This document shows, piece after piece, positions 1-34,790 of a stretch of DNA of 34,790 nucleotides. Numbering within the stretch: position 1 is the first letter of the stretch; every line of letters starts with the position of its first letter. The translations under genes and the position numbers were made by a program. The DNA is from a virus. A model generated the notes under the pieces. The model did no database searches. It saw nothing but the letters and a program-made list of their open reading frames with translations, and had not been told where the DNA came from. The stretch is taken from UHGV virus genome UHGV-0385761. One strand, written 5' to 3'.

Positions 1-819
1 GCACAGGATGGAATCTTGCAGGCAGAGGATGACTGGAATTGCGCTTGGCACTGTGGAGACACCAGCGGAAATCTGAATTATCTGAGTATCGAAGTATGCC
101 AGAGCATGGGTAATCTGGATGTATTTAAAGCAAACGAGGAAAAAGCATTGCAGTTGGCGGCACAGAAGTGTAAGCAGTACGGAATCACACCAAGCACAAG
201 CACAATCAGACTCCATCAGGAAGTGTATGCCACATCATGCCCTCACAGATCTGTAGAGATTCACGGCGGCAGAGAAGCTACAAAATCCTACTTTATTAAA
301 CGGATTAAGGAGTATATGGGTGGTAATGTCACGCCGCCAACTTATGTATCTGGAGGACAGGCGCAGGCTCAAGCTGCACAGAGACAGCCGGAAGTAGTAT
401 TTACTTACGCCGTCAAACTGGAGGACGGACGCATCTTGCCGTTTGTTCGCAATCTCACAGATTTTGCCGGGATTCAAGGTAAGCGCATCACGGATGTAGC
501 TATTAAGGTGGATAAAGGCTCCGTAAAATACAGAGTCCACGTGATTGGAAGAGGGTGGCTGCCTTATGTGACCGGATGTAACTGGAATGACCACAACAAC
601 GGCTATGCAGGTACAGGACAGCCAATCGATGCAATCGAGGTGTACTACAATACTCCAGCGGATTATGCGGCAAAATATGGCTACCAGAAAGCGCAGTACC
701 GTGTCAGTCCGGTAAATGGAACATACTGGGATTGGCAGTATGATAATGAGAACGGAAACGGACAGGACGGATATGCTGGAGCGTTCGGGCAGGCAATCGA
801 TAGATTCCAGTTGTTCTAA
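1..819 (+). CDS. Endolysin, N-acetylmuramoyl-L-alanine amidase (Amidase_2/PGRP) C-terminal part plus putative cell-wall-binding domain; partial, continues from the window end
   Basis: Frame 1 is open from nt 1. It carries AWHCGD, NxxSIEVC and the H..CP zinc-ligand motifs of Amidase_2. A C-terminal domain of about 150 aa follows. The stop is at 817-819. Confidence 0.8.
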   Translation, partial: AQDGILQAEDDWNCAWHCGDTSGNLNYLSIEVCQSMGNLDVFKANEEKALQLAAQKCKQYGITPSTSTIRLHQEVYATSCPHRSVEIHGGREATKSYFIKRIKEYMGGNVTPPTYVSGGQAQAQAAQRQPEVVFTYAVKLEDGRILPFVRNLTDFAGIQGKRITDVAIKVDKGSVKYRVHVIGRGWLPYVTGCNWNDHNNGYAGTGQPIDAIEVYYNTPADYAAKYGYQKAQYRVSPVNGTYWDWQYDNENGNGQDGYAGAFGQAIDRFQLF

Positions 820-825
820 TAAAAA

Positions 826-853
826 TCCCCTCGGAGATCAGTTATCTGAGGGG
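826..853 (+). terminator. Putative rho-independent terminator after the lysin
   Basis: CCCCTCGGAGAT-cagtt-ATCTGAGGGG, an imperfect stem of about 10 bp, followed by an A/T-rich tract. Confidence 0.4.
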
Positions 854-891
854 AATAATATTATTTTCCATCAAAATGTATTTTTAATAAA

Positions 892-919
892 TTCAATTCA
901 AACCCCTCTGTGCTATAAT
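892..919 (+). promoter_or_regulatory. Sigma70-like promoter with extended -10 (TGcTATAAT) for the downstream moron ORF
   Basis: TTCAAT (892-897), 16-bp spacer, TGCTATAAT (911-919). Confidence 0.45.
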
Positions 920-950
920 ATATGTAGTCAATACAAGAGGGGGAGCAAGT

Positions 951-1130
951 ATGGAATATCAAATATACGAATCTTACGATACATTTTTGCTTTACCAAGA
1001 GTTTTTGGAGATACCAGGTAATACATTCAAGTTCCGGCTGCCAGAAGGGATGATCCTGACAACCGAAATGATGCACACCTTTTTACGGGCGGCATATATG
1101 AGTGTTGGACGGATGGATCTGCCGTCCTGA
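951..1130 (+). CDS. Hypothetical 59-aa protein (moron between the lysin and attP/int)
   Basis: Strong RBS AGAGGGGGAG 5 nt before the ATG and its own promoter. Product MEYQIYESYDTFLLYQEFLEIPGNTFKF... has no recognisable family. The track misses it (under 60 aa) and shows a minus-strand antisense ORF here instead. Confidence 0.45.
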   Translation: MEYQIYESYDTFLLYQEFLEIPGNTFKFRLPEGMILTTEMMHTFLRAAYMSVGRMDLPS

Positions 1131-1145
1131 ATATTGTATCATTTA

Positions 1146-1195
1146 TTTTGTACTAATTATACTGCTCCAAATGGGGCTAAACACTTAGTACAAAA
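1146..1195. promoter_or_regulatory. Candidate attP core: perfect 11-bp inverted repeat TTTTGTACTAA / TTAGTACAAAA flanking a 28-bp spacer
   Basis: The 50-bp element sits 5 bp from the serine-recombinase stop codon. Its size and symmetry are typical of large-serine-integrase attP sites. Confidence 0.5.
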
Positions 1196-1199
1196 CAGA

Positions 1200-2600
1200 T
1201 TATAAAAAATCTACAGCTTTAATCGTATTGTCATCATTTAGGTAAATCTCCTGTATTGTGGATCGCCAAAAAGAACGCCTGTTTTCCGGAGACAGCGAAT
1301 CATACATCTGGCGAAAGTCAGTTTTTAATAGTTCTTCTACATAATGCAGGTTTCTCGTCTCTTCTTCCTCGCAAAAAGCAGCAGAAGCGGAATATTCTCT
1401 CTCCAATCTTTGGTACTCCTTATCGTAGTAATCGTAAGAAATCCGCCCTTTTTGAAATAATATATTTAATCGTTCCATTTCTTTTCTAAGCTTTTTCGGA
1501 TCTTTCGCTTTCTTTTGCTTTTTTAACTCTTCGCTGATCTGGTTGGTGCGAACCTTATACTTTTCGTACTCTCTTTCAAGATTTTCGAGCAGATATTTTT
1601 CGATAAGGTTCTGGCTCACCCTATGCCTATACGTGCAAATATGGTCTTTAAGCGCTCTATTGCAACGGTAGTAGCAGTACGTCCTTTTTTCCCACGTTTT
1701 ACGATTTATAACGGACGAGCATCCTGTACCGACTAATTTCTGTCCGCATACAGGGCAACGTATTAAACCAGTAAATAGGTATACTCTGCCAGATGGTGTG
1801 CTTTTTATATTTCTTTTCGAGATAGTTTGCATCTCATCCCATTCTTTTTCTGACAGGTATGCTGGACAATAAGGGTATCCTCTGTACGTCCCCTTGTAAA
1901 ATTCGCTCGATAACATTGTTCTCAACATTCCATAGCTAAAATCAATACCATAGGCCTCTTGCATGTACCGGACAGCACCTTTTTTGGAGTTATGGATTCT
2001 AAAATAATTAAAAAAATCTTCCACCATGTGTTCTGTTTCCGGATCCTTAACCATGCATTTCTTTCCATCCACAACGCCTGTTTTATATCCAAAAGGCATA
2101 TTTGCATCTCCGAATATTAACTTCCTCTGTCTTATAGATGCTTCATTCACAAATTTAATTCGCTCGGATGTGGTGTCTACTTCGTTTTGACCGATCGACA
2201 GCACTACATTTAACTGCAATCGTCCATCTCTTGTCTCCATGTTTATACCGGGCTCTGATACGGAAATCCAGCGAACACCATGATCATCAAGCACATCTTG
2301 CACCTTATAAAAATCAGAAAGATTTCGAAACCATCTGTCGAGTCTCCAGAAAATTATCACATCAATTTTATCCCTTTTTACGTCCTCTACAAGAGCGTGT
2401 ATGGCTTTTCTTTTCTTCAATTCTTTTCTGGCAGTCTTTCCCTCGTCCGCATAGACGCCTACTATAGACATATTGTTGTCTGTTGCGTATTGCTCCAGGC
2501 ATTCTTTCTGTGCTTGCAGAGACTTGCCATGTACGCTCTGCTCAAATGTGGAGACGCGGATGTATATGGCACACCGCAGTATTTTTTCTGGCATTTGCAT
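1200..2600 (-). CDS. Large serine recombinase (phage integrase)
   Basis: N-terminal resolvase domain with the YIRVSTFEQ catalytic serine motif, a recombinase domain, a CxxC...C zinc ribbon and a coiled-coil tail. The start is taken at MQMPEK (ATG 2600) after the RBS AAGGAGAG; the track's upstream extension lacks an RBS. Confidence 0.9.
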   Translation of the reverse strand: MQMPEKILRCAIYIRVSTFEQSVHGKSLQAQKECLEQYATDNNMSIVGVYADEGKTARKELKKRKAIHALVEDVKRDKIDVIIFWRLDRWFRNLSDFYKVQDVLDDHGVRWISVSEPGINMETRDGRLQLNVVLSIGQNEVDTTSERIKFVNEASIRQRKLIFGDANMPFGYKTGVVDGKKCMVKDPETEHMVEDFFNYFRIHNSKKGAVRYMQEAYGIDFSYGMLRTMLSSEFYKGTYRGYPYCPAYLSEKEWDEMQTISKRNIKSTPSGRVYLFTGLIRCPVCGQKLVGTGCSSVINRKTWEKRTYCYYRCNRALKDHICTYRHRVSQNLIEKYLLENLEREYEKYKVRTNQISEELKKQKKAKDPKKLRKEMERLNILFQKGRISYDYYDKEYQRLEREYSASAAFCEEEETRNLHYVEELLKTDFRQMYDSLSPENRRSFWRSTIQEIYLNDDNTIKAVDFL

Positions 2601-2769
2601 CACTCTCCTTTTGTAAAATATATTTAAAATTGGTACAAAAATAACAGCCAGCGCAAAACATATGTTCCGCTTGTGTGACTGCCCCGAAGATGATACAATA
2701 TTCGTGGATTTCAATCGCATATCTTCGGATATGTATACCGTCTCTGTTGGCGCAGGGGCGGTTTTTAAT

Positions 2770-3147
2770 TTACTGATTGATGATCATTCCTGCCCCGTCT
2801 CTGAAAGTTCCCGTAGCAATTTTAATAATGTCGTAGATATATCCGATGCCAAAACACCCGCCAGTGAGTAACCAAATAATACCAGTCCCAATTTTTCCTA
2901 CGTAAAATCTATGTATTCCTAGGACTCCTAGTAGGATTGCAAGGATAAGTGTTACGACCTTACTCTTTGGGCTAGTGCCTGATGCAAACCCTGAATTTAC
3001 CACATTTGCCTGAGCAGTGTTGTTAATCACAACGCTTGATGCTCCCGAAGTTTCGATCTTTTCAACTTGTTTCCCGCATTTTGGGCAAACAACGCAGTCT
3101 GCACTGATCTGCTCACCGCAATGCTTACAAAATTTTGTTTCGCTCAT
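2770..3147 (-). CDS. Zinc-ribbon plus TM2-domain membrane protein (lysogeny-module cargo; possible superinfection exclusion)
   Basis: [15 protein letters not shown] zinc ribbon at the N-terminus. The C-terminal TM2 domain motif is [39 protein letters not shown] precedes ATG 3147. Confidence 0.8.
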
Positions 3148-3276
3148 TTCATTTTCTCCTTTTCCTCTGTACTTTTCCCACAATTTATATATAAACGCCT
3201 AAGCGGTTATACCATATTAAATTAAAATCTTCCATCAATCCTTATAAAATATAAGAACAAATGTTCGAATAAAATG

Positions 3277-3354: not shown

Positions 3355-3465
3355 ATGGACGAATTAAATATCTTGTTATCCAAGCTCAACGGTAATGATT
3401 ATAAAATCATCCGGCAGCTTGTTTCGATATTACATAGGTATCTGGAGCGAAGAGGGAGACTTTAG
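3355..3465 (+). CDS. Hypothetical 36-aa peptide (MDELNILLSKLNGNDYKIIRQLVSILHRYLERRGRL)
   Basis: RBS AGGAGGG 7 nt upstream and a consensus promoter upstream. It is convergent with the repressor gene. Confidence 0.4.
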   Translation: MDELNILLSKLNGNDYKIIRQLVSILHRYLERRGRL

Positions 3466-3482
3466 TCTTCCCCTTTTTTATT
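3454..3482 (+). terminator. Putative terminator at the convergence of the 36-aa ORF and the repressor gene
   Basis: GGGAGAC-ttta-GTCTTCCC imperfect stem followed by CTTTTTTATT. Confidence 0.35.
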
Positions 3483-3854
3483 CAATCCAGATCCTACGCT
3501 TTTAAAATACTCTCTTATAACAAGTTTTGACTTCTCATCCATTTCCTGATATTTCTTCATCATTTCTATAATAATATCGTAAAAAGGATTTCCGACGCCG
3601 TCGTATTCAAGCAAGTCTTCTACGTAGTGGCCTACTTCATCAGATGGCTGTTTAAACATTTCTCCATTTCCGGATCTTAACCACTCTTCGTTCACGCTGT
3701 ATTTATTGCATAAATCAGAAATAACTCTATCACTCGGAATTGCTTTTCCTATTTCATATGTAGCAATCGTATTTCTTTTTAATCCAAGTTTATCAGCAAG
3801 TTCTTGCTGCGTTATTCCTATTGTCTTGCGCAGCTCTTTTATGCGCTCATTCAT
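3462..3854 (-). CDS. XRE-family HTH transcriptional repressor (cI-like phage repressor)
   Basis: N-terminal HTH_XRE (IKELRKTIGITQQELADKLGLKRNTIATYE). RBS AGGAGGTG precedes ATG 3854 (MNERIK...). The C-terminal domain is not peptidase S24. Confidence 0.85.
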   Translation of the reverse strand: MNERIKELRKTIGITQQELADKLGLKRNTIATYEIGKAIPSDRVISDLCNKYSVNEEWLRSGNGEMFKQPSDEVGHYVEDLLEYDGVGNPFYDIIIEMMKKYQEMDEKSKLVIREYFKSVGSGLNKKGED

Positions 3855-3878
3855 TGGCACACCTCCTATTCAATGTAG

Positions 3879-4797: not shown

Positions 4798-5571
4798 TTG
4801 AATGAATTATTTACAATCAACACAGACGGTAACGAACCAACCGTATCTGCCAGAGATCTTCATAAGGCTCTTGGGATCAGAAAAAGATTTTCCGAATGGT
4901 TCGAAAAGAATTCGCAAGGATTTATTGAGAATGAGGATTTCTCCAACCCGTACCTGAAAGTACGAGTTCAGATCGAGGGTGGAAGAGAAGTACAGAGAGA
5001 GGTTGAAGATTTTGATTTGTCAGTAGACATGGCAAAGCACATCTGCCTAATGAGCAGAACTGACAAAGGGAGAGAATGCAGACAAAGATTAATTGACCTC
5101 GAAAAAGCATGGAACACACCAGAACAGGTAATGGCAAGAGCCTTAAAGATGGCAGGAAAGACCATTGACAGCCTAAAAGACAGGTGCAAATTCCTCGGAG
5201 GGCAGGTTGTGGAACAGCAGAAATTGATCGAGGAAATGACACCAAAAGCGAACTATGTTGACCATATTCTGGAATCAAAATCGTTGGTAGCGACTACGCA
5301 GATCGCCAAAGACTATGGAATGTCAGCGGTGCGATTTAACCGGATTCTGAACGATATGAAAATCCAGTACAAGGTTAATAAACAGTGGGTGCTCTACTCA
5401 AAATATCAGAATTGCGGCTATGTGCATAGTAAAACAATCGATATTACAAGGAGCAACGGAGATCCGGATGTAACAATGCAGACGCAGTGGACACAGAAAG
5501 GGCGCTTGTTTTTATACGAGGAGCTTAAGAAAAACGGCATCTATCCAGTAATTGAGCTGAACGCAGCATAA
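4798..5571 (+). CDS. Phage antirepressor (AntA/ORF6N N-terminal domain plus KilA-C C-terminal domain)
   Basis: N-terminal TVSARDLHKALGIRKRFSEWFEKN and C-terminal LVATTQIAKDYGMSAVRFNRILNDMKIQYK. TTG start after AGGAGGT. Confidence 0.85.
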   Translation: MNELFTINTDGNEPTVSARDLHKALGIRKRFSEWFEKNSQGFIENEDFSNPYLKVRVQIEGGREVQREVEDFDLSVDMAKHICLMSRTDKGRECRQRLIDLEKAWNTPEQVMARALKMAGKTIDSLKDRCKFLGGQVVEQQKLIEEMTPKANYVDHILESKSLVATTQIAKDYGMSAVRFNRILNDMKIQYKVNKQWVLYSKYQNCGYVHSKTIDITRSNGDPDVTMQTQWTQKGRLFLYEELKKNGIYPVIELNAA

Positions 5572-5581
5572 GGAGGTACGC

Positions 5582-5740
5582 ATGAGCGATAAAGATAAAA
5601 AAGAAATTGCAGAAATGGTAAGAAAGGCAAAGCATCTGGCAGAAAACGATCCGCAGGGCTTCATGCTCGCCAAGAATAGTATAGATATTTTAAAGGCGAG
5701 ATCTGACATGGATGCAGTAGATGAAAAAGAGAATAACTAG
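5582..5740 (+). CDS. Hypothetical 52-aa protein
   Basis: RBS AGGAGGT 4 nt before the ATG. Not in the track (under 60 aa). Confidence 0.45.
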   Translation: MSDKDKKEIAEMVRKAKHLAENDPQGFMLAKNSIDILKARSDMDAVDEKENN

Positions 5741-5792
5741 GACAACATATCTCGGACAATCCATCCAGCATACATAGTAGAGAGGTGATTTT

Positions 5793-5906
5793 ATGAAGCC
5801 AGATATGGAAAAAATCATACAAGTGTTGATGTCTCTTATCGAAGAACAGGAACATGTGAAAATTGATTACACACTCGAAAAGAGGACAGAAGAGGAAACC
5901 GCCTAG
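5793..5906 (+). CDS. Hypothetical 37-aa protein
   Basis: RBS GAGAGGTGA precedes the ATG. The stop lies inside the palindrome CCGCCTAGGCGG. Confidence 0.35.
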   Translation: MKPDMEKIIQVLMSLIEEQEHVKIDYTLEKRTEEETA

Positions 5907-5927
5907 GCGGTAGAAGGGAGGACAAGC

Positions 5928-6116
5928 ATGGAGATTAAAGGAACCTACCACTGCCAGACCACTCAGCAACCAAACACATTAAACAGCTGGGACATCCGCT
6001 CCGTATCGGTAGATCTGCCGGAAGAAGAGGACAAGCCTTATTGGATCAGAGCTGGAGTGGCAGTGATCGGGTTTATCTTGGTGCTACTGGCGTGGTATCT
6101 GGTGTTTGGGTATTAA
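5928..6116 (+). CDS. Small membrane protein (62 aa, C-terminal TM helix)
   Basis: RBS GAAGGGAGGA. Hydrophobic C-terminus GVAVIGFILVLLAWYLVFGY. Confidence 0.5.
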   Translation: MEIKGTYHCQTTQQPNTLNSWDIRSVSVDLPEEEDKPYWIRAGVAVIGFILVLLAWYLVFGY

Positions 6117-6201
6117 AAAGAGTGCTGTCACAGGGCGGCAACCCTCGAGCACTCAAGAAATTAAAACAGTTAAATTGTAGACGAAAAGGAGAAGTTTGTA
6201 A

Positions 6202-7632
6202 ATGAAAATTACGAAAATTAAGATCAAAAATCTTTATGGAATTACAGAATATGAAGGAGACGGAAAGAGTGTAGAGCTTTCCGGAACAAATGGAGCAGGC
6301 AAATCTTCCGTGATTGATGCGATTCGGTACGCACTTACAAATAAGTCAAATCGCAAGTATGTTGTGAGAAACGGAGAAACAGAGGGGGAAATTCTGATTG
6401 AAACAGATAACGGATTGAGAATCAATCGGAAGGCAAGAACGAATCAAGCGGATTACAAGAGCGTGAAGCAGAACGGTCATGAGGTGGGGAGTCCGGAAAC
6501 ATTTTTGAAAGATATTTTTACTCCACTGCAGCTGTCACCGGTTGAATTTATGGAGAAATCCGAAAAAGAGCAGAATGCAATTTTGCTTGATATGATCCAG
6601 TATGACTGGTCATTGCAGACAATTCGTGAATGGTTTGGTGAAATTCCAGATTGGGTATCTTACGATCAGAATATTTTACAAGTTTTGAATGATATACAGT
6701 CGGAAAACGGCATGTATTACAGGAATCGGCAGGATGTGAATAGAGATATTCGGAATAAAAAATCATTTGTTGAGGATATCGCAGATGCTATCCCGTCTGG
6801 ATACGATGCAGAAAAATGGGAAAATGAAAATCTTGGACAGCTGTATCAGGAAATCGAGCGCATCAGAAAAGAAAATGAACAGATTGAGAAAGCAAAGAGA
6901 TTTATTGAGCAGAGGGACAACAAAGTCCGATCATTTGAAGCGGATAAAGAGATTAAATTATCCGCATTGGAAAGGTCGTTTACTGCAGAGCGCGAACGCC
7001 TTTTGAAAGAAAATGAAAGGCTGCAGGCTCAGTTGAGAGAAAATCAAACAATGCTTGCTGGTATGGAAGAGAGAAAAGCGGACAAAGCAGAAGTGATCGT
7101 AAAAGAATATGAAGCGAATGTTGCGAAATATGACAGCTCTGTAGAAGAGTATAAAGAATTGTCAGAAAAAGAAGTACAGGATTATTCGGAATTGCAGAAT
7201 CAGGCATCTTATGCGGAAGAGATGAAATCCCACTTGAATGAATATCGTCGAATGGTTGATCTACAGAACGAAGTGGAGCGATTAAAAGCAGAATCCGAAG
7301 ATTTTACGCAGAAAATCGAAAAGGCACGGTCTCTTCCGGGAGAAATCTTAGAAACTGCAACTATTCCGATTTCCGGTCTTACAGTTGTAAACGGTGTTCC
7401 GCTGATTCACGGACTCCCAATCAGCAATCTATCAGACGGAGAAAAACTTGATCTGTGTATCGATGTGGCGATTCAGAAGCCGAATGGACTGCAGATCATC
7501 CTGATTGATGGAGTAGAGAAAATGTCTACAAAAATGCGGACAGAGCTGTATCAGAAGTGCAAAGATAAGGGATTACAGTTTATCGCAACAAGAACAACAG
7601 ATGAAGAAGATCTGACAGTGATTGAATTATAA
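6202..7632 (+). CDS. AAA/SMC-like ATPase (RecF/RecN/SbcC-type; Walker A GTNGAGKSS, LSDGEK signature, Walker B IILID)
   Basis: Motifs read directly. A long central coiled-coil. RBS AAAGGAGAAG. Confidence 0.85.
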   Translation: MKITKIKIKNLYGITEYEGDGKSVELSGTNGAGKSSVIDAIRYALTNKSNRKYVVRNGETEGEILIETDNGLRINRKARTNQADYKSVKQNGHEVGSPETFLKDIFTPLQLSPVEFMEKSEKEQNAILLDMIQYDWSLQTIREWFGEIPDWVSYDQNILQVLNDIQSENGMYYRNRQDVNRDIRNKKSFVEDIADAIPSGYDAEKWENENLGQLYQEIERIRKENEQIEKAKRFIEQRDNKVRSFEADKEIKLSALERSFTAERERLLKENERLQAQLRENQTMLAGMEERKADKAEVIVKEYEANVAKYDSSVEEYKELSEKEVQDYSELQNQASYAEEMKSHLNEYRRMVDLQNEVERLKAESEDFTQKIEKARSLPGEILETATIPISGLTVVNGVPLIHGLPISNLSDGEKLDLCIDVAIQKPNGLQIILIDGVEKMSTKMRTELYQKCKDKGLQFIATRTTDEEDLTVIEL

Positions 7633-7643
7633 GGAGAATCGAT

Positions 7644-8279
7644 ATGGAAGAAATGATTGTAAAAGAGGAAAAACACGAATTGAGTCCATTTGCGGACAGC
7701 CAGAGTTTTCAGAAAATTTTTGATATTGGAAAAATGTTTGCTACATCGCAGCTGGTGCCACAGAATTACCAAGGAAAACCAATGGATTGCACCATTGCAG
7801 TAGATATGGCGAATCGAATGGGCGTATCCCCTATGATGGTCATGCAGAATCTGTATGTTGTAAAAGGTAAGCCTACATGGAGTGGACAGGCTTGTATGAG
7901 TATGATCCGGGCAAGTGAAGAGTTTAAAAATGTCCGTCTGGTATATTCCGGAGAACCGAACACTGACGGCAGAGGATGCAGAGTTGAAGCGGAATACAAA
8001 AGTGATGGAACGAAAGCGATTGGAACTACAGTGACAATAGGAATGGCCAAAGAGATGAAATGGTATGACAAGCCGGGAAGCTTATGGAAAACCATGCCGG
8101 AGCAGATGCTCAGCTATAGAGCAGCGGCGTATTTTGCCAGATCCTATATTCCGAATGCTCTTATGGGAATGCACGTTGAGGGAGAACCGGAGGACATTTG
8201 TGAAAATGAGAGAGAAACTGTAGAAAACCCGTTTGATTTCGAAGCGGCAGTGCAAGAGGCACAGGAGGTATTTGAATGA
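7644..8279 (+). CDS. RecT-family single-strand annealing protein
   Basis: TSQLVPQNYQGKPMDCTIAVDMANRMGVSPMMVMQNLYVVKGKPTWS matches the conserved RecT core. RBS AAGGAGAA. Confidence 0.7.
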   Translation: MEEMIVKEEKHELSPFADSQSFQKIFDIGKMFATSQLVPQNYQGKPMDCTIAVDMANRMGVSPMMVMQNLYVVKGKPTWSGQACMSMIRASEEFKNVRLVYSGEPNTDGRGCRVEAEYKSDGTKAIGTTVTIGMAKEMKWYDKPGSLWKTMPEQMLSYRAAAYFARSYIPNALMGMHVEGEPEDICENERETVENPFDFEAAVQEAQEVFE

Positions 8280-9073
8280 TTTTAACACAGGAAAATTATT
8301 ACAGTAAAGAAGCGAATCAGGAGTATCTCAGTGTCTCGCAGTATAAGGATTTTTGCGGAACGATTGGGCGTGTTGGATGCGAGGAGCAGGCACTTGCAAA
8401 GCTGAATGGTGACTGGGAAATGGAGAAAACAACAGCTCTCCTGGTTGGTTCTTATGTGGATTCGCATTTCGAGGGAACGCTTGATTTATTTAAGGCTCAG
8501 AATCCTGAGATATTCACAAAAAAAGGCGAGTTAAAGGCAGAGTACCGAAAAGCAGAAGAAATCATAAACCGAATCGAAAGAGATCCTTTATTTATGATGT
8601 TTATGAGTGGAGAAAAGCAGAAGATCTTTACAGCTAATCTGTTTGGAGCGAAATGGAAAGTGAAGCTTGACAGCTATTTGCCCGGTAAATGCATCGTTGA
8701 TTTGAAAGTAATGAAATCCCTGAGAGAAGCGCATTACGCAAAAGACATGGGATTGATGGACTTTGTGAGATTTTGGGGCTATGACATACAAGCTGCCGTA
8801 TACCAAGAGGTAGTGAGGATCAATACAGGGGAACGATTGCCGTTTTATATCGCAGCAGCCAGCAAGGAGAAAGTTCCAGATATCGAGATTATCCAGATTC
8901 CGCAGGAATGGATGAATGATTGCTTGTCTGGAATGGAGATGAATGTATCAAAGATTCTCTCTCTGAAAAACGGAGAGATCGATCCAATCCGTTGTGAAGT
9001 TTGTGACTGGTGTAAGCACACCAAAATACTAAAAACGCCAATCTGGCCAGATAATTTGATAGGAGAAGTGTAG
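8276..9073 (+). CDS. PD-(D/E)XK nuclease (Cas4/RecB-like exonuclease partner of RecT)
   Basis: CIVDLKVMK (D..ExK) and GYDIQAAVYQ motifs. C-terminal Cys cluster CEVCDWC. ATGA start/stop overlap with the upstream gene. Confidence 0.75.
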   Translation: MILTQENYYSKEANQEYLSVSQYKDFCGTIGRVGCEEQALAKLNGDWEMEKTTALLVGSYVDSHFEGTLDLFKAQNPEIFTKKGELKAEYRKAEEIINRIERDPLFMMFMSGEKQKIFTANLFGAKWKVKLDSYLPGKCIVDLKVMKSLREAHYAKDMGLMDFVRFWGYDIQAAVYQEVVRINTGERLPFYIAAASKEKVPDIEIIQIPQEWMNDCLSGMEMNVSKILSLKNGEIDPIRCEVCDWCKHTKILKTPIWPDNLIGEV

Positions 9074-9737: not shown

Positions 9738-9847
9738 AGAGCCTTGTTATAAATTGTAACCCGTTCATGTTCAGGTACGTCACACTACACTGAATACATA
9801 TCCCGGGAGAAATCCCGGGAGGAAAGGAGTGAAAGGCTCTAAGAACT

Positions 9848-10669: not shown

Positions 10670-10678
10670 GGAGGAACT

Positions 10679-23402: not shown

Positions 23403-23413
23403 AAGGAGCACCT

Positions 23414-24921: not shown

Positions 24922-24923
24922 AT

Positions 24924-25451: not shown

Positions 25452-25471
25452 AAGAAAAGGAGAGTGAGCCA

Positions 25472-25837: not shown

Positions 25838-25838
25838 C

Positions 25839-26411: not shown

Positions 26412-26421
26412 GGTGATGAAG

Positions 26422-26574
26422 ATGGATAAAATAAAGAAACCGCCACTGATAAGAAAGTGGTATAGATGTCCGGTGTGCGGGTGCAAACTCTTGATTTATG
26501 ATAATGCAACTGTCTGTACCAATGTATTTATTAAGTGCCGGACATGTAAAAAAGAAGTAGAGATTAAGATTTAA
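26422..26574 (+). CDS. Zinc-ribbon mini-protein (50 aa; CPVCGC...CRTCKK)
   Basis: RBS GAGGTGA 5 nt before the ATG. It lies between the chaperone and TMP. Confidence 0.45.
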   Translation: MDKIKKPPLIRKWYRCPVCGCKLLIYDNATVCTNVFIKCRTCKKEVEIKI

Positions 26575-26625
26575 GCACTTTAAATTGAGCCATTGAGCCT
26601 GTGCTATCCATAAAGGAGGGATAGT

Positions 26626-28956
26626 ATGGGTTACGATGGCTCATTAAAATTTAATACAGAAATAAACGAATCTGGATTTAATTCAGGAATTTCCAAACTT
26701 GGCAGTGTTGCAAGTGGTGGATTGAAAGTTATTGCCGGATCAGTAGCTGGCGTTGCTGCAGCATTTGGGGCAGTGTCTAAAATGTCTCTTGATTCTGTTG
26801 CAAGCTTGGAGCAGAACATAGGCGGTGTTGAGACGCTGTTTAAAGATAGCGCGCAGACAGTGATTGATAACGCGAACAATGCGTATAAGACAGCTGGTGT
26901 ATCCGCAAATAAGTACATGGAGACTGTGACAAGCTTTTCTGCATCACTTTTACAGGGGCTTGGGAATAACACCGCAGAAGCTGCTAAAATAGCGGATATG
27001 GCAATGGTAGACATGTCTGACAATGCGAATAAATTCGGTTCCAACATGACGGATATCCAAAATGCTTATCAGGGATTCGCGAAGCAGAACTACACAATGT
27101 TGGATAACCTGAAGCTTGGATATGGTGGAACGCAGGCTGAAATGATACGCCTGATTAATGATAGCGGCATTTTGAACGAGAAAATAGAAAATCTCGACAA
27201 TGTGTCATTTGATCAGATTATTCAGGCAATCCACAAGATTCAGGAAAATATGGGTATTGCCGGAACGACAAGCGCAGAAGCATTGACTACCATAGAGGGT
27301 TCTGTGCAATCCGCAAAAGCCGCGTTTGACAACTTTTTAAATGGTTCAAGTTCCCCACAGGAGTTGGCAGACGCTGTAAAGGCTGCGGCTGAAAATATAA
27401 CAAATAATTTAATGCAGATTGTTCCAAGACTTGCAAAAGAACTCCCAGAGGTTGGAAACCTGTTGATGGACAGTCTTTCGCAGTCACTTAACTCTGGAAA
27501 ACTCGGAGAAATGATGCAGATCGGTGGACAAGTCATTTCCAACATAACAACTGGAATTATACAAGCATTGCCCGGAATTGTAACTGCATCAGCGCAGATT
27601 ATAAGCTCATTTGCACAAAATATCAGCACCAGCATACCTCAGCTATTATCATCCGGAATTCAGATCATACAGGCAATAATAAATGGGATGATGCAGGTAT
27701 TACCGTCTGTTGGCTTGCTTATAACTCAACTTATTACAACTCTATACGAGCAGATAACATCTCAGGGGCCAAGTTTGTTGCAGCAAGGCTATGAATTGTT
27801 AAGCAATCTGATTGATGGATTCGTAAAGGCAATTCCAGAAGCGTTGCCGAAAGTGCTTGATTTCATACAGGGCATTGGAGAAAAGCTCGCAGAAGCTGCA
27901 CCAGTGATGATTCAAAAAGGATTTGAGTTGTTGCAGAAATTGGTAGAAGGAATTGTGAGTGCAATACCGATATTGATTGAGCGAGTTCCGGAAATTATTT
28001 CGACATTCGCAAACATAATCAATGATAATTTCCCTACAATCCTGATGAAGGGTGCTGAATTACTTGGTCAGTTGGCGCTCGGACTTATTCAGGCAATACC
28101 GACTCTGATTGCAAATATTCCACAGATTATATCAGCTATCGTTGATACATTAATGGCGTTCCAGTGGTTGAATCTTGGTAAAACCATTATAACCGCATTA
28201 GGAAACGGAATTAAATCTATGGTTGGTTTCGTCACAGAATGCGGAAAAAGCATATTGAACGGAATCAAATCATCTGTTCAAAATTTGCCAACTTTATTGC
28301 GCGATATCGGTCGAACTGCAATGACTGGGTTTTCTAATGTGATACAAACTTCAATCGTTGCAGTAAAAAATGCCGCTTCGAATATTGTAAGTACTATCGT
28401 AAGTACAATCTCTTCCATTCCCGGACAGATGGCTTCTATCGGCAGCAATATTGTTCAGGGGCTGTGGAATGGAATATCCAACATGACGGGATGGATCATT
28501 GATAAAATAGGTGGATTCGCTGATAGTGTAGTTACAGCTATTTGTGATTTTTTTGGTATAAAATCACCGTCCAGAGTTATGCGAGATCAGGTTGGTAAGT
28601 ATCTTGCAATGGGAGTTGGCGTTGGATATGAAGAGTACATGCCGTATGAAGAAATGAAAAAAGTATCCGGTAAGGTGGTGTCGCAGTTGTCCGCATCTGT
28701 GAGTGGTGTAACGTTATCAGTGCCGGAAAGCGCTGGAAGTCAAACGTACCAGAAAAGCGTTGGAATTCAAAAAGCCAACAACAACGATGATCTAATCTAC
28801 GCAGTAGATCGATTATCCAGACTCGCAAACCGGCCGCTTGAAATTATCAATAAAATTGATTCTGTTGAGACGTCCAGAGTACTTGCGGCACCAATGGAAA
28901 AACAAATAGAAAAGAATTCGAGTTTTCGGAAGATGTTAGGAGGAGACAGAGATTGA
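26626..28956 (+). CDS. Tail tape measure protein
   Basis: 776 aa. TMP core (AGVSANKYMETVTSFSASLLQG...) with Gly/Ala/Ile-rich hydrophobic repeats. Confidence 0.9.
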   Translation: MGYDGSLKFNTEINESGFNSGISKLGSVASGGLKVIAGSVAGVAAAFGAVSKMSLDSVASLEQNIGGVETLFKDSAQTVIDNANNAYKTAGVSANKYMETVTSFSASLLQGLGNNTAEAAKIADMAMVDMSDNANKFGSNMTDIQNAYQGFAKQNYTMLDNLKLGYGGTQAEMIRLINDSGILNEKIENLDNVSFDQIIQAIHKIQENMGIAGTTSAEALTTIEGSVQSAKAAFDNFLNGSSSPQELADAVKAAAENITNNLMQIVPRLAKELPEVGNLLMDSLSQSLNSGKLGEMMQIGGQVISNITTGIIQALPGIVTASAQIISSFAQNISTSIPQLLSSGIQIIQAIINGMMQVLPSVGLLITQLITTLYEQITSQGPSLLQQGYELLSNLIDGFVKAIPEALPKVLDFIQGIGEKLAEAAPVMIQKGFELLQKLVEGIVSAIPILIERVPEIISTFANIINDNFPTILMKGAELLGQLALGLIQAIPTLIANIPQIISAIVDTLMAFQWLNLGKTIITALGNGIKSMVGFVTECGKSILNGIKSSVQNLPTLLRDIGRTAMTGFSNVIQTSIVAVKNAASNIVSTIVSTISSIPGQMASIGSNIVQGLWNGISNMTGWIIDKIGGFADSVVTAICDFFGIKSPSRVMRDQVGKYLAMGVGVGYEEYMPYEEMKKVSGKVVSQLSASVSGVTLSVPESAGSQTYQKSVGIQKANNNDDLIYAVDRLSRLANRPLEIINKIDSVETSRVLAAPMEKQIEKNSSFRKMLGGDRD

Positions 28957-30422
28957 GTTTATCTGTAAAATTCAACGATCAGGAACTCGGGCGATACTTG
29001 AGTGTATTGTCCGGGTTTTCTCCGTTTAGCGGAGTAAATAGAGAGACAGAACTTCTTGACGGAGCAGAAAGTGCAAAAGGAGAGGATTTTGGCTATATAA
29101 CATATAAATCAAAGACACTTGAAATGCCATTTGAAATTAAAGGCGATATTTTAGAAAGTTATGATGCGATTCAGAAGATCCTAAACGTCACAGAGCCGAA
29201 AAGGCTTGTGTTTGGGAATTATCCGGATCGCTATTTTTATGCTGTCCCTGACGGTAATTTTGATATAACACAGGTTGCAATGTTTGGGAAAGGCACGATC
29301 ACATGGCTCATCCCAGACGGGGTAGCATACTCCACTACAGAATTTGCATTTGACGGAGTGCAAGAAGATGGATACCAGACAATTACCATCCAAAACAACG
29401 GTACCGAGTGGACGGATGTGGACTATGAGATTACCCACAAGCACGAGAACGGCTTTATTGGATTGGTCAGCCAGTATGGAGTAATTCAGCTTGGGAAACA
29501 AGAAGAAGCGGACGGAGAGAACTACGAAGCGTCCGAAGAACTGTTTAACGGTTACAGTCTGTTTCAAGACGATCACGGTACCTCTTATCAGAACCCAGAA
29601 AACACCACACAGGGAACGCTCGAAGTCAAGAATGTTGCCGGATATAACGTCATGGCATTAAAAGGTGGACAGGCAACATACGGATACTGGAACGGTGGAA
29701 TGAAAACCCTTACTATCCCGGTGGACAGCGAGGGCAGACGTGGAGCGAAGAACTTTTACTGTTACACCCAGCACTGGTTCGAGACTGGATTGATGGGACA
29801 GACGGGAGCACAGACTATTGCGTTTCTTACAGGGAAAAATGAAGTGATCTGCTCCATGTCTATTAACAAGAGTGATGCCACAGGTAATACGGCGCGTATC
29901 GAGTGGTTTGCCCCAGGGAACACCTTGCTCAGACGGGAAGAGTTCCAGCCGACAGCCTACGAGGGCAATCCGTTTAACCTAAAAATGGGATGCCACAACG
30001 ACTTTTTAAAAGAGGGAGAAAAGCTGCGGATTTTCTGGTATGGAAGCTATATGGAGAGAAACATACCGGAAATAAAGGATATGGAATGCGAAAAAATCCA
30101 GATCTGGATCGGGCAGTGGGGAGACAGAAACCTCACAAACCAGTACGTTACACACAACTATTTAAAAAGCATCCGATTCCGGAAAGACAATGTCGATAAG
30201 TATAAGGATGTGCCGAACCGGTATCGTGCCGGAGATGTGGTGTCTATAGACGGAGAGAGTACAAAGGTCTATGTAAACGGGATGCCGGCAAAAGGAGATG
30301 AGATTAATGGATCCAATTATCCAAAAGTTCCACCGGGGACAACGGAAGTGCAGTTCTGCTACTCTTCCTTTTCCTCTCCGCCGCCACAGATTAAAGCAAA
30401 AATACGGGAGGTATATTTGTAA
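28953..30422 (+). CDS. Distal tail protein (Dit), extended
   Basis: Position after TMP. Siphovirus tail-component N-terminus. The length of 489 aa implies inserted domains. Confidence 0.75.
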   Translation: MSLSVKFNDQELGRYLSVLSGFSPFSGVNRETELLDGAESAKGEDFGYITYKSKTLEMPFEIKGDILESYDAIQKILNVTEPKRLVFGNYPDRYFYAVPDGNFDITQVAMFGKGTITWLIPDGVAYSTTEFAFDGVQEDGYQTITIQNNGTEWTDVDYEITHKHENGFIGLVSQYGVIQLGKQEEADGENYEASEELFNGYSLFQDDHGTSYQNPENTTQGTLEVKNVAGYNVMALKGGQATYGYWNGGMKTLTIPVDSEGRRGAKNFYCYTQHWFETGLMGQTGAQTIAFLTGKNEVICSMSINKSDATGNTARIEWFAPGNTLLRREEFQPTAYEGNPFNLKMGCHNDFLKEGEKLRIFWYGSYMERNIPEIKDMECEKIQIWIGQWGDRNLTNQYVTHNYLKSIRFRKDNVDKYKDVPNRYRAGDVVSIDGESTKVYVNGMPAKGDEINGSNYPKVPPGTTEVQFCYSSFSSPPPQIKAKIREVYL

Positions 30423-33400
30423 TGGATAACATCAGAATTGCGATTATAAGCACAAATAACACGCCAGTAGCGTACATGGACAACGGGCATAAAAAGTCCA
30501 TGCACTACTGGAATGATAAGCTGCACGAATACTTACAGGGTACGGCGAATGCTTACACTTTTACGGTAAATGCAAAGCATCCAGACGCACAGCATATCAA
30601 AGCTGGGAATAAGGTGGCATTTACTTACAAGGGGAAATCATACTACTTAAACATTGTAAATACCGATCAAACGGAACAGACGATTACTGCTACGGCATGG
30701 TCACTGTCGTTTGAGCTTATTAACGAGGATGCTGGAGAATACAAAGCTGGAAAAGCCATGAGTTTTGAAGAGTACCTCGCCGTCTTTGATGCTGAGAGAA
30801 CGCTTAAATTGGGACTCAATGAGGTGTCGGACAAACGGATCACCAACGAATGGACAGGTACAACGTCCGTATTAAAGAGATTATTCTCCCTGGCTAATGT
30901 CTTTTCTGCGGAGATCGAATTTGAGACAGTACTGAACAGAGACTACTCTTTAAAAGAGATTGTCCTAAATGTATATCGGAAACACTCCGATACAGACAGC
31001 GGAGTCGGAGAATACCGGAATGACATTGTACTGCGGTACGGGAAAGGAATTACCGGAATTCGAAAAACCACAGATGCCGAGAAGCTTTACACCTGCATCC
31101 AGCCGACCGGAAAGGACGGTCTGACGATCAATGGACTGGACAAAAAAGAATACGATGAGAACGGGAATATCGAGTACTTTACAGACGGTGCGATCATCCG
31201 CGCACCACAGGCAAGGGACCGGTTCCCATCCAACATCGTAAATAAGGCTGATGCTTATATCCTGATGCGTAAAGAGTACGATACAGACAGCAAGGACAAG
31301 CTGCACAGCATGGCATTATCTGACCTCAAGACCGCATCCGAGCCAGTAGTAACCTACGAGGTGGACGGATATTTTGACACCAACATCGGGGACACCGTGA
31401 GGATGCAGGATCAGGAGTGGACACCAGTGCTTTATCTACAGGCGAGAGTGTCCGAACAGGTGCGCAGTCTTACAAATCCAAAGACAGCAAAGACGGTATT
31501 TACAAACTACAAAGAGCTTACATCCGAAATTTCGGACAGCTTATTACAGAGGATGCAAGACCTTATTAATAAAAATAAGGTTTATACTTGCTCTATCTCA
31601 ACAAACAACGGCATTATTTTTAAAAATGGCATCGGTAGCACTACTCTGACCGCTTACGCTTACGATAACGGCGTGGACGTCACAGGAAATCTGGAAATCC
31701 GGTGGAGTAAAGATGGGACAGAGTTTTACGTTGGTAAGAGCGTTACGGTTAATGCAGAGGATGTGGATGTAAAAGTAGTGTACTCTTTTACGGCGTTTGA
31801 AAACGGCGTGCGTAGAGGGTATTACGAGGTTACGATCACGGATGTAATGGATGGAGAGGATGGAAAAGACGGAGAACAGGGTCCGCAAGGTGAGAAAGGA
31901 GAGCAAGGCGAACAGGGACCTCCGGGTCCACAAGGCGCTCCGGGATTGGATGGTATACAGGGTCCAAAAGGGGATCAGGGAATCCCGGGAAAAGATGGGA
32001 AGGACGGAAAAACACAGTACACCCACATTGCTTATGCAAACAGCGCAGATGGGTCTAAAGATTTTTCTGTATCCGACAGTAATCGGGAATATATCGGAAT
32101 GTATGTTGATTTTACGCAAAATGACAGCGCAGACCCGACAAAATATGCATGGAGTAAGATCAAAGGCGCAGATGGGGCGATTGGAACACCCGGAAAGCCG
32201 GGAGCTGATGGAAAGACCCCATATCTACATATCGCCTATGCAAACAGCGCAGATGGCAAGACGGGATTTTCCACCACGGATGGTACAAATAAGCTCTATA
32301 TCGGGCAGTATACAGATTATACACAGGCAGATAGTACAGATGCTGCGAAATATACATGGACAAAGATCAAAGGCGAACAGGGGGAACGTGGTCCTCAGGG
32401 AGTCCCGGGTTTGCAGGGAATACAAGGTCCTAAAGGTGAACAGGGAATACAGGGACCTCAAGGAAATACAGGTGCTACTGGACCGCAGGGACCAGCCGGA
32501 CAGTCCACCTATTTTCATATTAAGTATTCCTCAGTTGCGAATCCTACCTCAAGTAGCCAGATGACGGAAACGCCGTCTACATACATTGGTACTTACGTAG
32601 ATTTTACGCAAGCAGATAGCGAAGATCCAAAGAAATATGCCTGGTCACGCTTCCAGGGAGTGCAAGGACCACAGGGAACGCAGGGGATTCCGGGGACAAA
32701 TGGCGCAAACGGCAAGACAAGCTATCTTCACATTAAATATTCTAATGATGGAGGAAAAACGTTTACCGGAAACAGCGGAGAAGATGTGGGAACGTATATC
32801 GGTACTTGTGTGGATTACAATCAGTCCGATCCTGCAAGTGTTGGATCTTATAAGTGGGCGAAGATTAAAGGAGAACAAGGAGCTACCGGTCCACAAGGAC
32901 CTCAAGGAAATGCAGGTGCAACAGGTCCCAAGGGGCCACAAGGAGCGACTGGCCCGAAAGGACCGCAGGGGGCAACTGGTGCAACGGGACCGCAAGGGGC
33001 AACTGGAAACGGAATAAAGTCTATCACGAATTATTATCTTGCAACGGCAAGCGGAAGCGGTGTGTCGGCGTCCACATCAGGATGGACTACAACTGTACAA
33101 GCAATAACGGCGTCAAAAAAATATCTGTGGAATTATGAAGTTGTTACCTATACAAATGGTAGCACGTATCAATCAGCACCATGTATCATCGGAGCATATG
33201 GTGATAAGGGAGCGACCGGTGCTACAGGAGCAACAGGACCAAGTGGCATAATTGTATCTTCTACGGCTCCGTCAAATCCTAAAGTTGGCCAGTTATGGCA
33301 AACGGCATCCGGTCAGCCGATCAAGCGGTGGGATGGAAGTAGGTGGGTGATCCATTATATTTCTGTTGATAACTTAAACGCACAGACTTTAAGTGCGATA

Positions 33401-34060
33401 GCGGCAGATCTTGGAACTGTAACTGCCGGACTTATTAAGGATAAGAATGGAACAATGCTTATCGATGTTACATCCGGAAAGATTATTAGCAAGAAAAACG
33501 TGCAAGGAGCAGTGGAAAATGTTGCGTCATTGAGTAATGCGTATTTGGCTTTCTCTGGTAAGGCTCCGACAACAGATCGAGCTACTATGAGCGTGAACTT
33601 GCAAAACATCATGTTTACAAATGAAAATACAAGAAAAGCAACGACAATCCAGTTTGAGGATGAAATGATATATGCAAGAAATTCTGTATCCCCACGTATA
33701 AGCATATATGCGTATCGCAATTACGATTCCGGCACCGTGAAAGGTCCATATACAAGCACAAACTCCGCTAATAACATCCGTGTAGAGTTAAAAAGGAGAG
33801 GGTGTATGGTAACATGTAATATCACAATGCTTGCGCAGTTCCCGAATAGCGGAAGCTTCGGAGCGTTTAACGAGGTGCGAATCCCTGTTGGGTATCGCCC
33901 AGTGCTCGACATCAGAACACCTTACAACGAGGTGTCCGGCTCCCGGATCCTTGGAACTGGTCGATATCTAATCAGCAAAGACGGTGGAATTTCAATCTAT
34001 GTCAATAACCCAAATTGGACAGAGAGGCACTTGTCTATCACATGGATTACGGATGACTAA
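30422..34060 (+). CDS. Tail-associated protein / receptor-binding protein (Tal) with collagen-like GXY tracts and four tandem repeat modules
   Basis: N-terminal Tal-like region. Six GXY runs between 31852 and 33250. Four modules of about 57 aa of the form Y(L/T)HI(A/K)Y..........YIG.Y.D(F/Y).Q.DS.D..KY.W.KIKG. Confidence 0.85.
   Translation: [1212 protein letters not shown]
31852..33250 (+). repeat. Collagen-like (GXY)n coding repeats interleaved with tandem modules of about 170 bp inside Tal
   Basis: [54 protein letters not shown] and five further tracts. Confidence 0.8.
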
Positions 34061-34082
34061 AGGAGTGAATATGGAGATTAGA

Positions 34083-34107
34083 GCAAGACCGTGATGGTCT
34101 TATTTTT
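34083..34107 (+). terminator. Rho-independent terminator after Tal (AAGACC-gtgat-GGTCTT followed by ATTTTTAT)
   Basis: Perfect 6-bp stem and a T-run. It precedes the lysis cassette. Confidence 0.5.
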
Positions 34108-34138
34108 ATACTTTAAAATCAGAAAGGAAAGTGAGGAT

Positions 34139-34591
34139 ATGAAGAAAATGGAGCAGTTGGCAAATGTAAAAGCGTTTTTATGCATGGTGTTTGGAGCTAT
34201 TGCTGGAGGATTCGTAAACCTGATCGGAGGATGGTCCGAGGACTTGACTACATTACTTATTTTTATGGGTGTAGACTTTGTTCTTGGATTGCTGATCGCT
34301 GCCTTTTGGAAAAAGAGCAACAAATCAGAGAACGGTGCGCTAAGCAGCTACTCAGCGTGGAAAGGTTTGTGCAGAAAAGGGGTATCCCTACTGATCGTAC
34401 TTATTGCATATCGGCTGGATGTTACTCTCGGCGTAGACTACATCCGTACAGCCGTGGTACTGGCATTTATAGCAAATGAGGGTATCTCGATTTTGGAAAA
34501 TGTTGGAATTATGGGCGTGAAATATCCGGAAGCGTTAAAAAAAGCACTGGATGTTTTAACAAATAAATCACAGGAGCAGGAGGGCGAGTAA
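34139..34591 (+). CDS. Holin (Phage_holin_4_1 / TcdE-like)
   Basis: Three hydrophobic helices; ...[27 protein letters not shown].... RBS GAAAGGAAAGTGAGGAT. The start is taken after the terminator. Confidence 0.8.
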
Positions 34592-34634
34592 TCGTCCTCT
34601 TTTATTGTGCGACATCGCACGGAAAGGAGAAAAT

Positions 34635-34790
34635 ATGAGTATTTGTCGTGGAGTAGCAGGAAACAGAGGAAGAAATCCAGTGGGAATCTTTATCCATAAT
34701 GACGCTGGTAGTCAGAATGCGAACGCAGCGTTTTACAGAAATTGGATACAGACACATCCCTTGGAAAATGGATTTGCGCACTATTATGTA
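34635..34790 (+). CDS. Endolysin Amidase_2 N-terminus (partial; continues in frame at window position 1)
   Basis: [39 protein letters not shown]...NGFAHYYV. 156 nt is exactly 52 codons, so the frame runs into nt 1. Confidence 0.8.

Follow-up and report, generated by a model that had tools for sequence, protein, structure and literature searches.

The window, that is, the whole 34,790-nucleotide stretch of DNA analyzed here, is very probably one complete, non-integrated unit of a temperate siphovirus genome, written from a circular assembly that was opened arbitrarily within the endolysin gene. The DNA that was sequenced would have been topologically or effectively circular, either as a circle, excised or replicating, or as virion DNA that was permuted and concatemeric. 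This circle would have been closed by the assembler, and the linear record would then have been opened at an arbitrary base, which falls between endolysin codons 52 and 53. A break inside a gene is expected because coding density is roughly 90%, and the split endolysin is a routine consequence of assembly, with nothing biologically odd about it. The features of the window are as follows.

1..34790, + strand: very probably one full unit of a temperate siphovirus genome, 42.5% G+C, with the circle opened in the endolysin gene
1..819, + strand: 3' part of the endolysin gene, codons 53-324 plus stop, with the rest of the Amidase_2 domain
951..1130, + strand: 59-aa ORF, the final gene before attP, in the moron position; identical protein in prophages
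1131..1210, no strand: attP, imperfect dyad with arms 1131-1169 and 1172-1210 about a central AA (1170-1171)
1200..2720, - strand: predicted large serine recombinase (integrase), 506 aa; Pfam Resolvase and Zn_ribbon_recom
2770..3183, - strand: zinc-ribbon/TM2-domain membrane protein of the lysogeny module; Pfam TM2 6.1e-20, Zn_Ribbon_1 1.2e-05
3462..3860, - strand: CI-like HTH repressor; Pfam HTH_3 2e-13, Phage_CI_repr 8.6e-05
4798..16731, + strand: early and middle genes, from PHROGs and Pfam
17078..17152, + strand: tRNA-Asn (GTT), from ARAGORN
17333..19028, + strand: terminase small subunit (17333-17812) and large subunit (17781-19028)
19025..34060, + strand: virion module, from PHROGs and Pfam
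34139..34591, + strand: holin, 150 aa; Pfam Phage_holin_4_1, E = 9e-32
34635..34790, + strand: 5' part of the endolysin gene, codons 1-52, with ATG at 34635 and a GGAG ribosome-binding site upstream

The earlier note on this DNA had proposed that one endolysin gene is split in phase over both ends, and the joined sequence bears this out. The final 156 nt (34635..34790) translate as MSICRG...ENGFAHYYV, frame 1 from the first base of the window reads AQDGILQAEDDWNCAWHCGD... up to a stop at 817-819, and the two parts joined in frame form a single 975-nt ORF of 324 codons plus stop (the product given earlier as 325 aa is 324 aa, the larger figure including the stop). One contiguous match to Pfam Amidase_2 (PF01510), which had been suggested as a check, was obtained over the junction: residues 12-134 correspond without interruption to positions 2-130 of the 131-position profile, with 64.2 bits (cut-off, 26) and an E value of 2e-17, and the join at residues 52|53 lies inside this match. 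Alignments with two endolysin amidases of solved structure, 4OLS (E = 2.6e-30) and 8C4D, cross the join and are ungapped there, with the blocks IHNDAG, AHYY, AWH.GD, IEVCQSM, RLH and CPHRS identical or nearly so. These are conserved endolysin blocks that presumably include the active-site residues and the zinc ligands. The C-terminal region of the endolysin, about 150 aa, has no Pfam match.

At the DNA level, the joined ORF is 99.7% identical to an independent contig (L002), with no gaps over 975 nt and three mismatches in the whole gene, and the region around the join is identical at 121 of 121 positions. It is also 90.3% identical, again without gaps, to gp20 of phiRg507T2_3 (MT980837), which is likewise 975 nt long. 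The 30-mer centred on the join is found unbroken in two further viral contigs, five fetched loci as well as MT980837 span the join colinearly, and intact 324-aa lysins with 95-97% identity are present in integrated prophages, one of them on a 3.5-Mb chromosome. The end-to-end join is thereby confirmed; it is far beyond chance, and no base is lost or doubled.

The genes on either side of the join follow the order given in the earlier note: holin, lysin / lysin, small ORF ("moron"), attP, int. Between the end of the holin gene (34591) and the start of the lysin gene lie 43 nt, and the same holin-then-lysin arrangement is seen in loci L052 and L053. An identical 150-aa holin precedes the lysins of many prophages, where it is found with three different lysins. 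Downstream of the lysin, the 59-aa ORF has no Pfam match, and prophages adjoining different host genes encode an identical protein at their right-hand end. A promoter and terminator scan of positions 780-1260 retrieved nothing above shuffled expectation, and a stem-loop that follows the lysin stop (817-863) falls short of the scanner's terminator rule, so that this ORF is a putative moron by position only.

The remaining genes make up a complete set. The early and middle genes encode an anti-repressor, an AAA/SbcC-like ATPase, RecT, an exonuclease, an HNH-like protein and RusA, followed in the same region by a replisome organizer, a C5 DNA methyltransferase and a sigma-like late regulator. The terminase genes are supported by matches to phrog_309 (1.2e-67), phrog_2 (2.5e-36) and Pfam Terminase_6N (1e-11), and the virion module comprises a portal, minor capsid protein 2, scaffold, major head protein and connectors, together with tail proteins, a tape measure, Dit and a 1212-aa tail fiber. 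The set covers lysogeny, recombination, replication, packaging, head, tail and lysis, with no module doubled or absent. The window measures 34.8 kb, against a range of 34.9-37.8 kb in isolated R. gnavus phages (PMC10072058, PMC13435783). Exact-protein look-ups of the 132-aa repressor and the 506-aa integrase retrieved no record, which may reflect different start-codon calls or a new allele.

The window resembles Ruminococcus phage RG-TP1 (PQ571303; "cluster D" of PMC13435783), which was induced from Mediterraneibacter gnavus DB_YZ_1. The two share gene order all round the genome, the window being a pure rotation of RG-TP1 with a near-constant circular offset, and the local order of lysin, 59-aa ORF and reverse-strand integrase is the same. 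The integrases show 86-98% identity in tblastx segments, and the TerL proteins are 72.9% identical. The RG-TP1 record is itself a circle opened in a gene: its termini overlap by 141 nt, and joining them yields an ORF of 678 codons. Its length is 36,030 bp including this overlap, whereas the window has 34,790 and no overlap. The two genomes differ in that only 28% of window bases 1-25,000 aligns by megablast, at about 89% identity, and in that RG-TP1 carries another holin and an 807-nt lysin gene, so that no more of the query aligned there than its final ~84 nt, around the stop codon of the lysin. RG-TP1 has Sak4, ERCC4 and primase-helicase genes where the window has RecT, exonuclease and replisome organizer.

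This degree of divergence, with the best complete relative covering just 28% of those bases, is one of the points that would fit an artefactual join, in which two related phages had been collapsed or a repeat had induced a false circle; the phage group is highly mosaic, as seen from the one holin with three different lysins, and several variants occur together in gut samples. However, a single independent contig (L002) matches the sequence on either side of the join at 99.7%, with only three mismatches over the whole gene, the flanking order (holin upstream, 59-aa ORF downstream) is repeated in L046, L052 and L056, synteny with RG-TP1 is unbroken round the whole circle, and modules are neither duplicated nor missing. 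An assembly artefact is thus highly unlikely.

The ends themselves carry no direct repeat: no exact repeat of ≥10 nt was found there, and the sole match in a head-versus-tail comparison of the window is an 11-nt inverted one at chance level (E = 0.43). The description of the window as a terminally redundant contig is therefore not upheld, since neither an exact nor an approximate redundancy is present at its termini. The window lacks the mark that a circular assembly normally leaves in its sequence, and it is the endolysin gene and its homologues that point to closure; an assembly overlap, if any, was trimmed before this record. Among the RgGU phages, 29 of 29 were assembled as circles and later reoriented by hand (PMC13435783).

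Nothing specific favors virion DNA with fixed ends (cos or short direct terminal repeats) and a window written from those true ends, beyond the fact that some siphoviruses of this size are cos type. The ends fall well inside a conserved catalytic domain at a distance of 17 kb from the terminase genes, terminal repeats are lacking, isolated relatives were assembled as circles, and the relatives of the terminase include those of pac-type Streptococcus thermophilus phages and PBSX-family terminases, which together leave this arrangement next to no probability. The terminase relatives are distant, at 25-34% identity, with the tblastn set that contains S. thermophilus O1205 and 858 and PBSX-family S. 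aureus sequences at only 25-28%, and a PDB search with TerL retrieved only the D6E terminase (E = 8e-14). The module of portal, minor capsid protein 2, scaffold and major capsid protein without a protease resembles that of pac-type dairy phages. The terminase relatives hint weakly that packaging may be by headful and that virion DNA may be physically permuted. Of the term "circularly permuted" used earlier, the arbitrary opening of a closed circle is retained, whereas physical permutation has this faint indication only.

The integrase gene reported earlier beside attP is present, and its class can now be specified. Its product matches Pfam Resolvase (PF00239; 94.2 bits, 1.1e-26) and Zn_ribbon_recom (PF13408; 37.6 bits, 3e-09), with Recombinase (PF07508) at 19.3 bits, slightly under the 21.1-bit cut-off. 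Judged by these domains, it is a large serine recombinase, unlike the tyrosine type of some relatives. A scan of the genome collection with this integrase retrieved only relatives with 63-78% amino acid identity, in other Lachnospiraceae genomes, which helped to locate the point at which homology ends. The attP site overlaps the region of the int stop codon; its two 39-nt arms are complementary at 28 of 39 positions and are separated by 2 nt (AA), and it contains a 9-bp core, GCTCCAAAT (1164-1172), in common with attB. The attP region is identical to that of RG-TP1 at 95 of 95 positions and, because RG-TP1 was induced from M. gnavus, the host of the present phage would be Mediterraneibacter (Ruminococcus) gnavus or a close relative. 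Contig L002 diverges from the window at about position 1141. This was considered as a prophage/host junction and dropped because the break precedes the crossover by 29 nt and its flank is unlike the host flank seen elsewhere; a different integration module is the more likely cause.

Half of attP is fused to a host gene in at least 27 fetched loci, 23 of attL type, in which the P' half is joined to the host gene, and 4 of attR type, in which the P half is joined, all with the common core. Both hybrids occur on one 37.9-kb viral contig (L013, L043). Joining the host flanks reconstructs an attB that lies in a single 343-aa ORF with one NMT1 match (4e-26), and in the lysogen form of this NMT1-family lipoprotein gene a stop follows after 82 aa. 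No naturally empty attB was present among the retrieved loci, and attB is a reconstruction, with AGTACAGCAGTCATCGTTTTGTCGGCTCCAAATCCTGTGACGAGTTCCAGTTCAATGCCC as the predicted empty sequence. The target lipoprotein probably serves an ABC transporter as its solute-binding protein. Integrated relatives have the map attL-int ... holin-lysin(intact)-59-aa ORF-attR. Sequence OODQ01000399.1 begins with host|P' and finishes with a full attP, which shows integrated and circular forms together in a single gut sample.

Given that the phage is temperate and that its relatives are very often integrated, as the 23 attL-type and 4 attR-type loci illustrate, the window could in principle have been taken out of a bacterial contig as an integrated prophage, or as tandem prophages, with host DNA on either side. 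A single prophage would, however, run from attL to attR with its lysin intact, as in L044, L046 and L053, and this version is already contradicted: the window ends in the lysin gene and not at att sites, it holds an un-recombined attP in its interior, and Pfam and PHROGs searches over its genes found no host gene. For head-to-tail tandem prophages an attP between units is expected, and the information content would be that of the same circle. With both versions taken together, integration is an extremely improbable origin for the window. The intact attP, the half-sites fused to host DNA elsewhere and the restored 343-aa host gene support instead an excised or circular form. The conclusion of the earlier note, a circular phage contig and not a prophage with host flanks, thus stands on complete modules, rotation relative to RG-TP1 and an intact attP; its proposed checks for the absence of host genes and of attL/attR gave no host gene in the window and an intact attP in place of the hybrids.

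In the life cycle that this arrangement suggests, the serine integrase would recombine attP, about its central AA, with an attB that shares GCTCCAAAT and lies inside the host NMT1-family lipoprotein gene. Integration would cut the lipoprotein to 82 aa and generate the prophage map described above, and excision would bring back both attP and the host gene. Large serine recombinase phages that split a host gene include Listeria A118 and phi10403S, in comK, and Bacillus subtilis SPbeta, in spsM. The present phage is like these in its combination of a resolvase-type catalytic domain with recombinase and zinc-ribbon domains, in an attP of about 80 bp that forms an imperfect dyad about a central dinucleotide and has minimal identity to attB, and in a host ORF that is truncated by integration and restored by excision. 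It differs in its target, an NMT1-family lipoprotein, and in that nothing observed here points to excision serving as a regulatory switch. No recombination directionality factor was identified in the window.

Another group of near relatives consists of phiRg507T2_3, phiRgPS_6 and related Ruminococcus phages (MT980836-41; Buttimer et al. 2023, PMC10072058). These are temperate siphoviruses with genomes of 36.5-37.8 kb, in which holin, lysin and integrase follow in that order. Their endolysin gene is likewise 975 nt and 90% identical, and tail fiber, Dit and holin segments reach 87-94%, whereas the genes for head and packaging show little relationship at the DNA level and the integrase gene of phiRg507T2_3 is shorter, at 1155 nt. 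PMC10072058 gives phiRgPS6 a 21-bp attP/attB that is intergenic, as against the serine integrase and the 9-bp core within a gene found here.

The record is best handled as a complete circular genome and not as a prophage with host flanks, and rotating it before annotation, for example to terS at 17333, avoids calling the endolysin as two fragments. What is added is a map of attP, attL, attR and the inferred attB for a serine-integrase lineage of R. gnavus phages that includes RG-TP1; a text search of PMC10072058 and PMC13435783 retrieved an att site for phiRgPS6 only. Since integration cuts the product from 343 to 82 aa and precise excision restores the gene, the prophage might act on R. gnavus nutrient uptake as a reversible genetic switch ("active lysogeny") through the NMT1-family gene, a role that we consider very unlikely. 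The mapped att sites could aid the calling of prophage boundaries in gut metagenomes. For R. gnavus, a gut species that is hard to engineer, the integrase might be worth considering as an integration tool.

The endolysin gene is divided between the two ends of the window. Translation of the last 156 nt gives an ATG at 34635, preceded by a GGAG ribosome-binding site, and 52 stop-free residues, while the 3' part runs in frame 1 from base 1 (AQDGILQAEDDWNCAWHCGD...) to a stop at 817-819. Concatenation of both ends yields one ORF of 975 nt (324 codons plus stop), showing that the gene is split in phase, as the earlier note had proposed; the 325 aa given there had counted the stop codon. The joined product has the contiguous domain expected across the junction, a single Pfam Amidase_2 match of 64.2 bits (cut-off 26) that pairs residues 12-134 with profile positions 2-130 of 131. 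This stretch includes the join, at residues 52|53, and the alignments to two endolysin amidases of known structure, 4OLS (E = 2.6e-30) and 8C4D (E = 4.4e-23), span it with no gap there. The C-terminal ~150 aa (residues ~175-324; window 370-816, plus strand), presumably the cell-wall-binding part, gave no Pfam match at E <= 0.01, and the PDB matches stop short of it. Two segments in this region look alike by eye (...GYAGTGQPIDAIEVYY... and ...GYAGAFGQAIDRFQLF).

The junction recurs in independent sequences. A 30-mer centred on it is intact in two other IMG/VR contigs, and the alignments of public loci L001, L002, L021, L044, and L046 pass colinearly through 34790|1. The joined ORF matches the independent contig L002 at 99.7% identity with 0 gaps and 3 mismatches (121/121 around the join), and gp20 of Ruminococcus phage phiRg507T2_3, also exactly 975 nt, at 90.3% with 0 gaps. 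Intact 324-aa lysins, 95-97% identical, occur in integrated prophages on large scaffolds and a 3.5-Mb NCBI chromosome, with FAHYYVAQDGILQ contiguous in them. No base is lost or doubled at the join. A chimeric join is unlikely, as both lysin halves match one contig (L002) with so few mismatches, the genes flanking both sides recur elsewhere, and synteny with the induced Mediterraneibacter gnavus phage RG-TP1 is unbroken.

The seamless join supports the circular half of the earlier reading of a "circular or terminally redundant" contig, but not the other half, as no terminal redundancy, exact or approximate, was found between the window's two ends. That these are fixed physical DNA ends is implausible, since they would fall well inside a catalytic domain and have no terminal repeat. 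A circular assembly written as a linear record would normally split a gene in this way, here with the overlap trimmed and the start not reoriented. RG-TP1, the closest isolated relative, likewise has a gene divided between its record ends (PQ571303.1, L059). This record carries a 141-nt direct terminal repeat (1-141 and 35890-36030), and its ends, once joined, give a 678-codon ORF as against the short CDS (14-748, 'DNA primase/helicase') annotated at its start, so the point at which the record opens appears to interrupt the gene. GenBank lists the record as linear despite the repeat. According to a 2026 study covering 29 phages of R. gnavus, all genomes were assembled into circular contigs and then manually reoriented to start at terS (PMC13435783).

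Annotation by PHROGs and Pfam shows that the window is a complete temperate siphovirus, and found no host housekeeping genes in it, as had been anticipated. The earlier interpretation is thereby supported, with the correction that the integrase is of the serine type.

Features of the window (coordinates, strand, feature)
34635..819, plus, endolysin (Amidase_2 on the joined product)
951-1130, plus, 59-aa ORF
1200-2720, minus, serine integrase
2770-3183, minus, 137-aa membrane protein (N-terminal zinc ribbon, C-terminal TM2 domain)
3462-3860, minus, CI-like repressor
4798-5571, plus, anti-repressor
6202-7632, plus, AAA/SbcC-like ATPase
7644-8279, plus, RecT
8276-9073, plus, exonuclease
9294-9737, plus, RusA
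9848-10669, plus, replisome organiser
11358-12857, plus, C5 methyltransferase
16294-16731, plus, sigma-like late regulator
17078-17152, plus, tRNA-Asn (GTT)
17333-17812, plus, TerS
17781-19028, plus, TerL
19025-20371, plus, portal
20378-21535, plus, minor capsid protein 2
21638-22186, plus, scaffold
22201-23058, plus, major head protein
23414-26411, plus, connector and tail genes
26626-28956, plus, tape measure
28953-30422, plus, Dit
30422-34060, plus, tail fibre (1212 aa)
34139-34591, plus, holin (150 aa)

The zinc-ribbon/TM2 gene lies between integrase and repressor, at the position of an annotated superinfection-exclusion gene in phiRg507T2_3. The tRNA-Asn gene occupies the gap between late regulator and terS, and its sole DNA match outside the R. 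gnavus phage group is to a tRNA-Asn from an Exiguobacterium phage. ORFs 25448-25837 and 25788-26411 (plus strand), which precede the tape measure gene, overlap by 50 nt, in the usual place of tail assembly chaperones made via programmed frameshifting. An identical holin is partnered elsewhere (L047-L052) by 245-aa Amidase_2, 267-aa Amidase_3, and 324-aa Amidase_2 lysins, which indicates module shuffling within the lysis cassette. The assembly collection indexes an identical copy of the 59-aa protein in about 2,000 blocks; among the places listed (L052-L058), it lies at, or a few genes from, the prophage right-hand end, with host neighbours of at least two kinds (Mn-catalase/Asn-synthase and PHP/Trp-repressor). 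It accompanies the prophage end whatever the integration site.

The integrase stop codon is directly followed by an imperfect inverted repeat, with 39-nt arms (1131-1169 and 1172-1210) complementary at 28/39 positions and separated by AA; this element (1131-1210) is built as one would expect of a serine-integrase attP. In integrated relatives from Lachnospiraceae genomes, DNA homology to the window stops at 1164-1185. Querying public contigs with each attP half-site retrieved the attP form (P' half beside a P arm like that of the window, or closely similar to it) in 7 loci, an attL-type form (P' half joined at an identical position to a conserved sequence other than the P arm) in 23, and an attR-type form (P half joined to another conserved sequence) in 4, with both hybrids on one 37.9-kb viral contig (L013, L043). 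The 9-bp core GCTCCAAAT is all that the four att sites share. When the two host flanks are put together, one ORF of 343 aa is recovered, which carries a lipoprotein signal (...LLTGC) and has a single NMT1/THI5-like match (4e-26); in the lysogen, this ORF is cut short after 82 aa. The intact attP inside the window and the lack of host DNA contradict a single integrated prophage. An excerpted prophage would look the opposite of the window, where attP is internal and un-recombined and both ends fall within the lysin gene, so the non-integrated reading proposed earlier holds.

In two loci (L016:1-46 and L023:5371-5457), the sequence fused to the P' half, at the identical position before AA, differs from both the P arm and the host flank usually found there (...GGCGAACATGG|AATGGGG and ...GGTGTCGGAACGG|AATGGGG). 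They may represent secondary integration at pseudo-attB sites, or a target that has diverged in a different host. The 35,699-bp contig OODQ01000399.1 (IMGVR_UViG_3300045988_017335) opens on 20 nt of host flank followed by the P' arm (L018/L041) and ends with a complete attP (L020/L030). Its assembly seems to have passed from the integrated form to the excised circle, suggesting that the two were present together in this gut sample.

TerL carries a Terminase_6N domain, and its relatives outside Ruminococcus, at only 25-28% identity, include those of the pac-type Streptococcus thermophilus phages O1205 and 858 and PBSX-family terminases; its sole PDB match is the D6E terminase. With portal, minor capsid protein 2, scaffold, and major head protein but no protease, the head module resembles those of pac-type phages. 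Headful packaging is the likely, though putative, mode, under which virion DNA would be physically circularly permuted.

The nearest phages in the collection all infect R. gnavus and are 87-92% identical over mosaic segments; of window bases 1-25,000, 28% align with the best complete relative, at ~89% identity. By tblastx, matches to RG-TP1 keep the same order around the whole circle, with a circular offset that stays nearly constant (~24-27 kb modulo 36,030), so the window is a pure rotation of the RG-TP1 genome plan. The attP region of RG-TP1 is identical to that of the window (95/95), which points to M. gnavus as host. Isolated R. gnavus phages measure 34.9-37.8 kb in two papers (PMC10072058, PMC13435783), making 34,790 bp a normal full length; a text search of both papers found an att site only for phiRgPS6. 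Within the RG-TP1-like serine-integrase lineage of temperate siphoviruses from R. gnavus, the window phage represents a new mosaic member. The phenomenon itself was known before, and a modest by-product is that attP, attL, attR, and the inferred attB are now mapped for this lineage.
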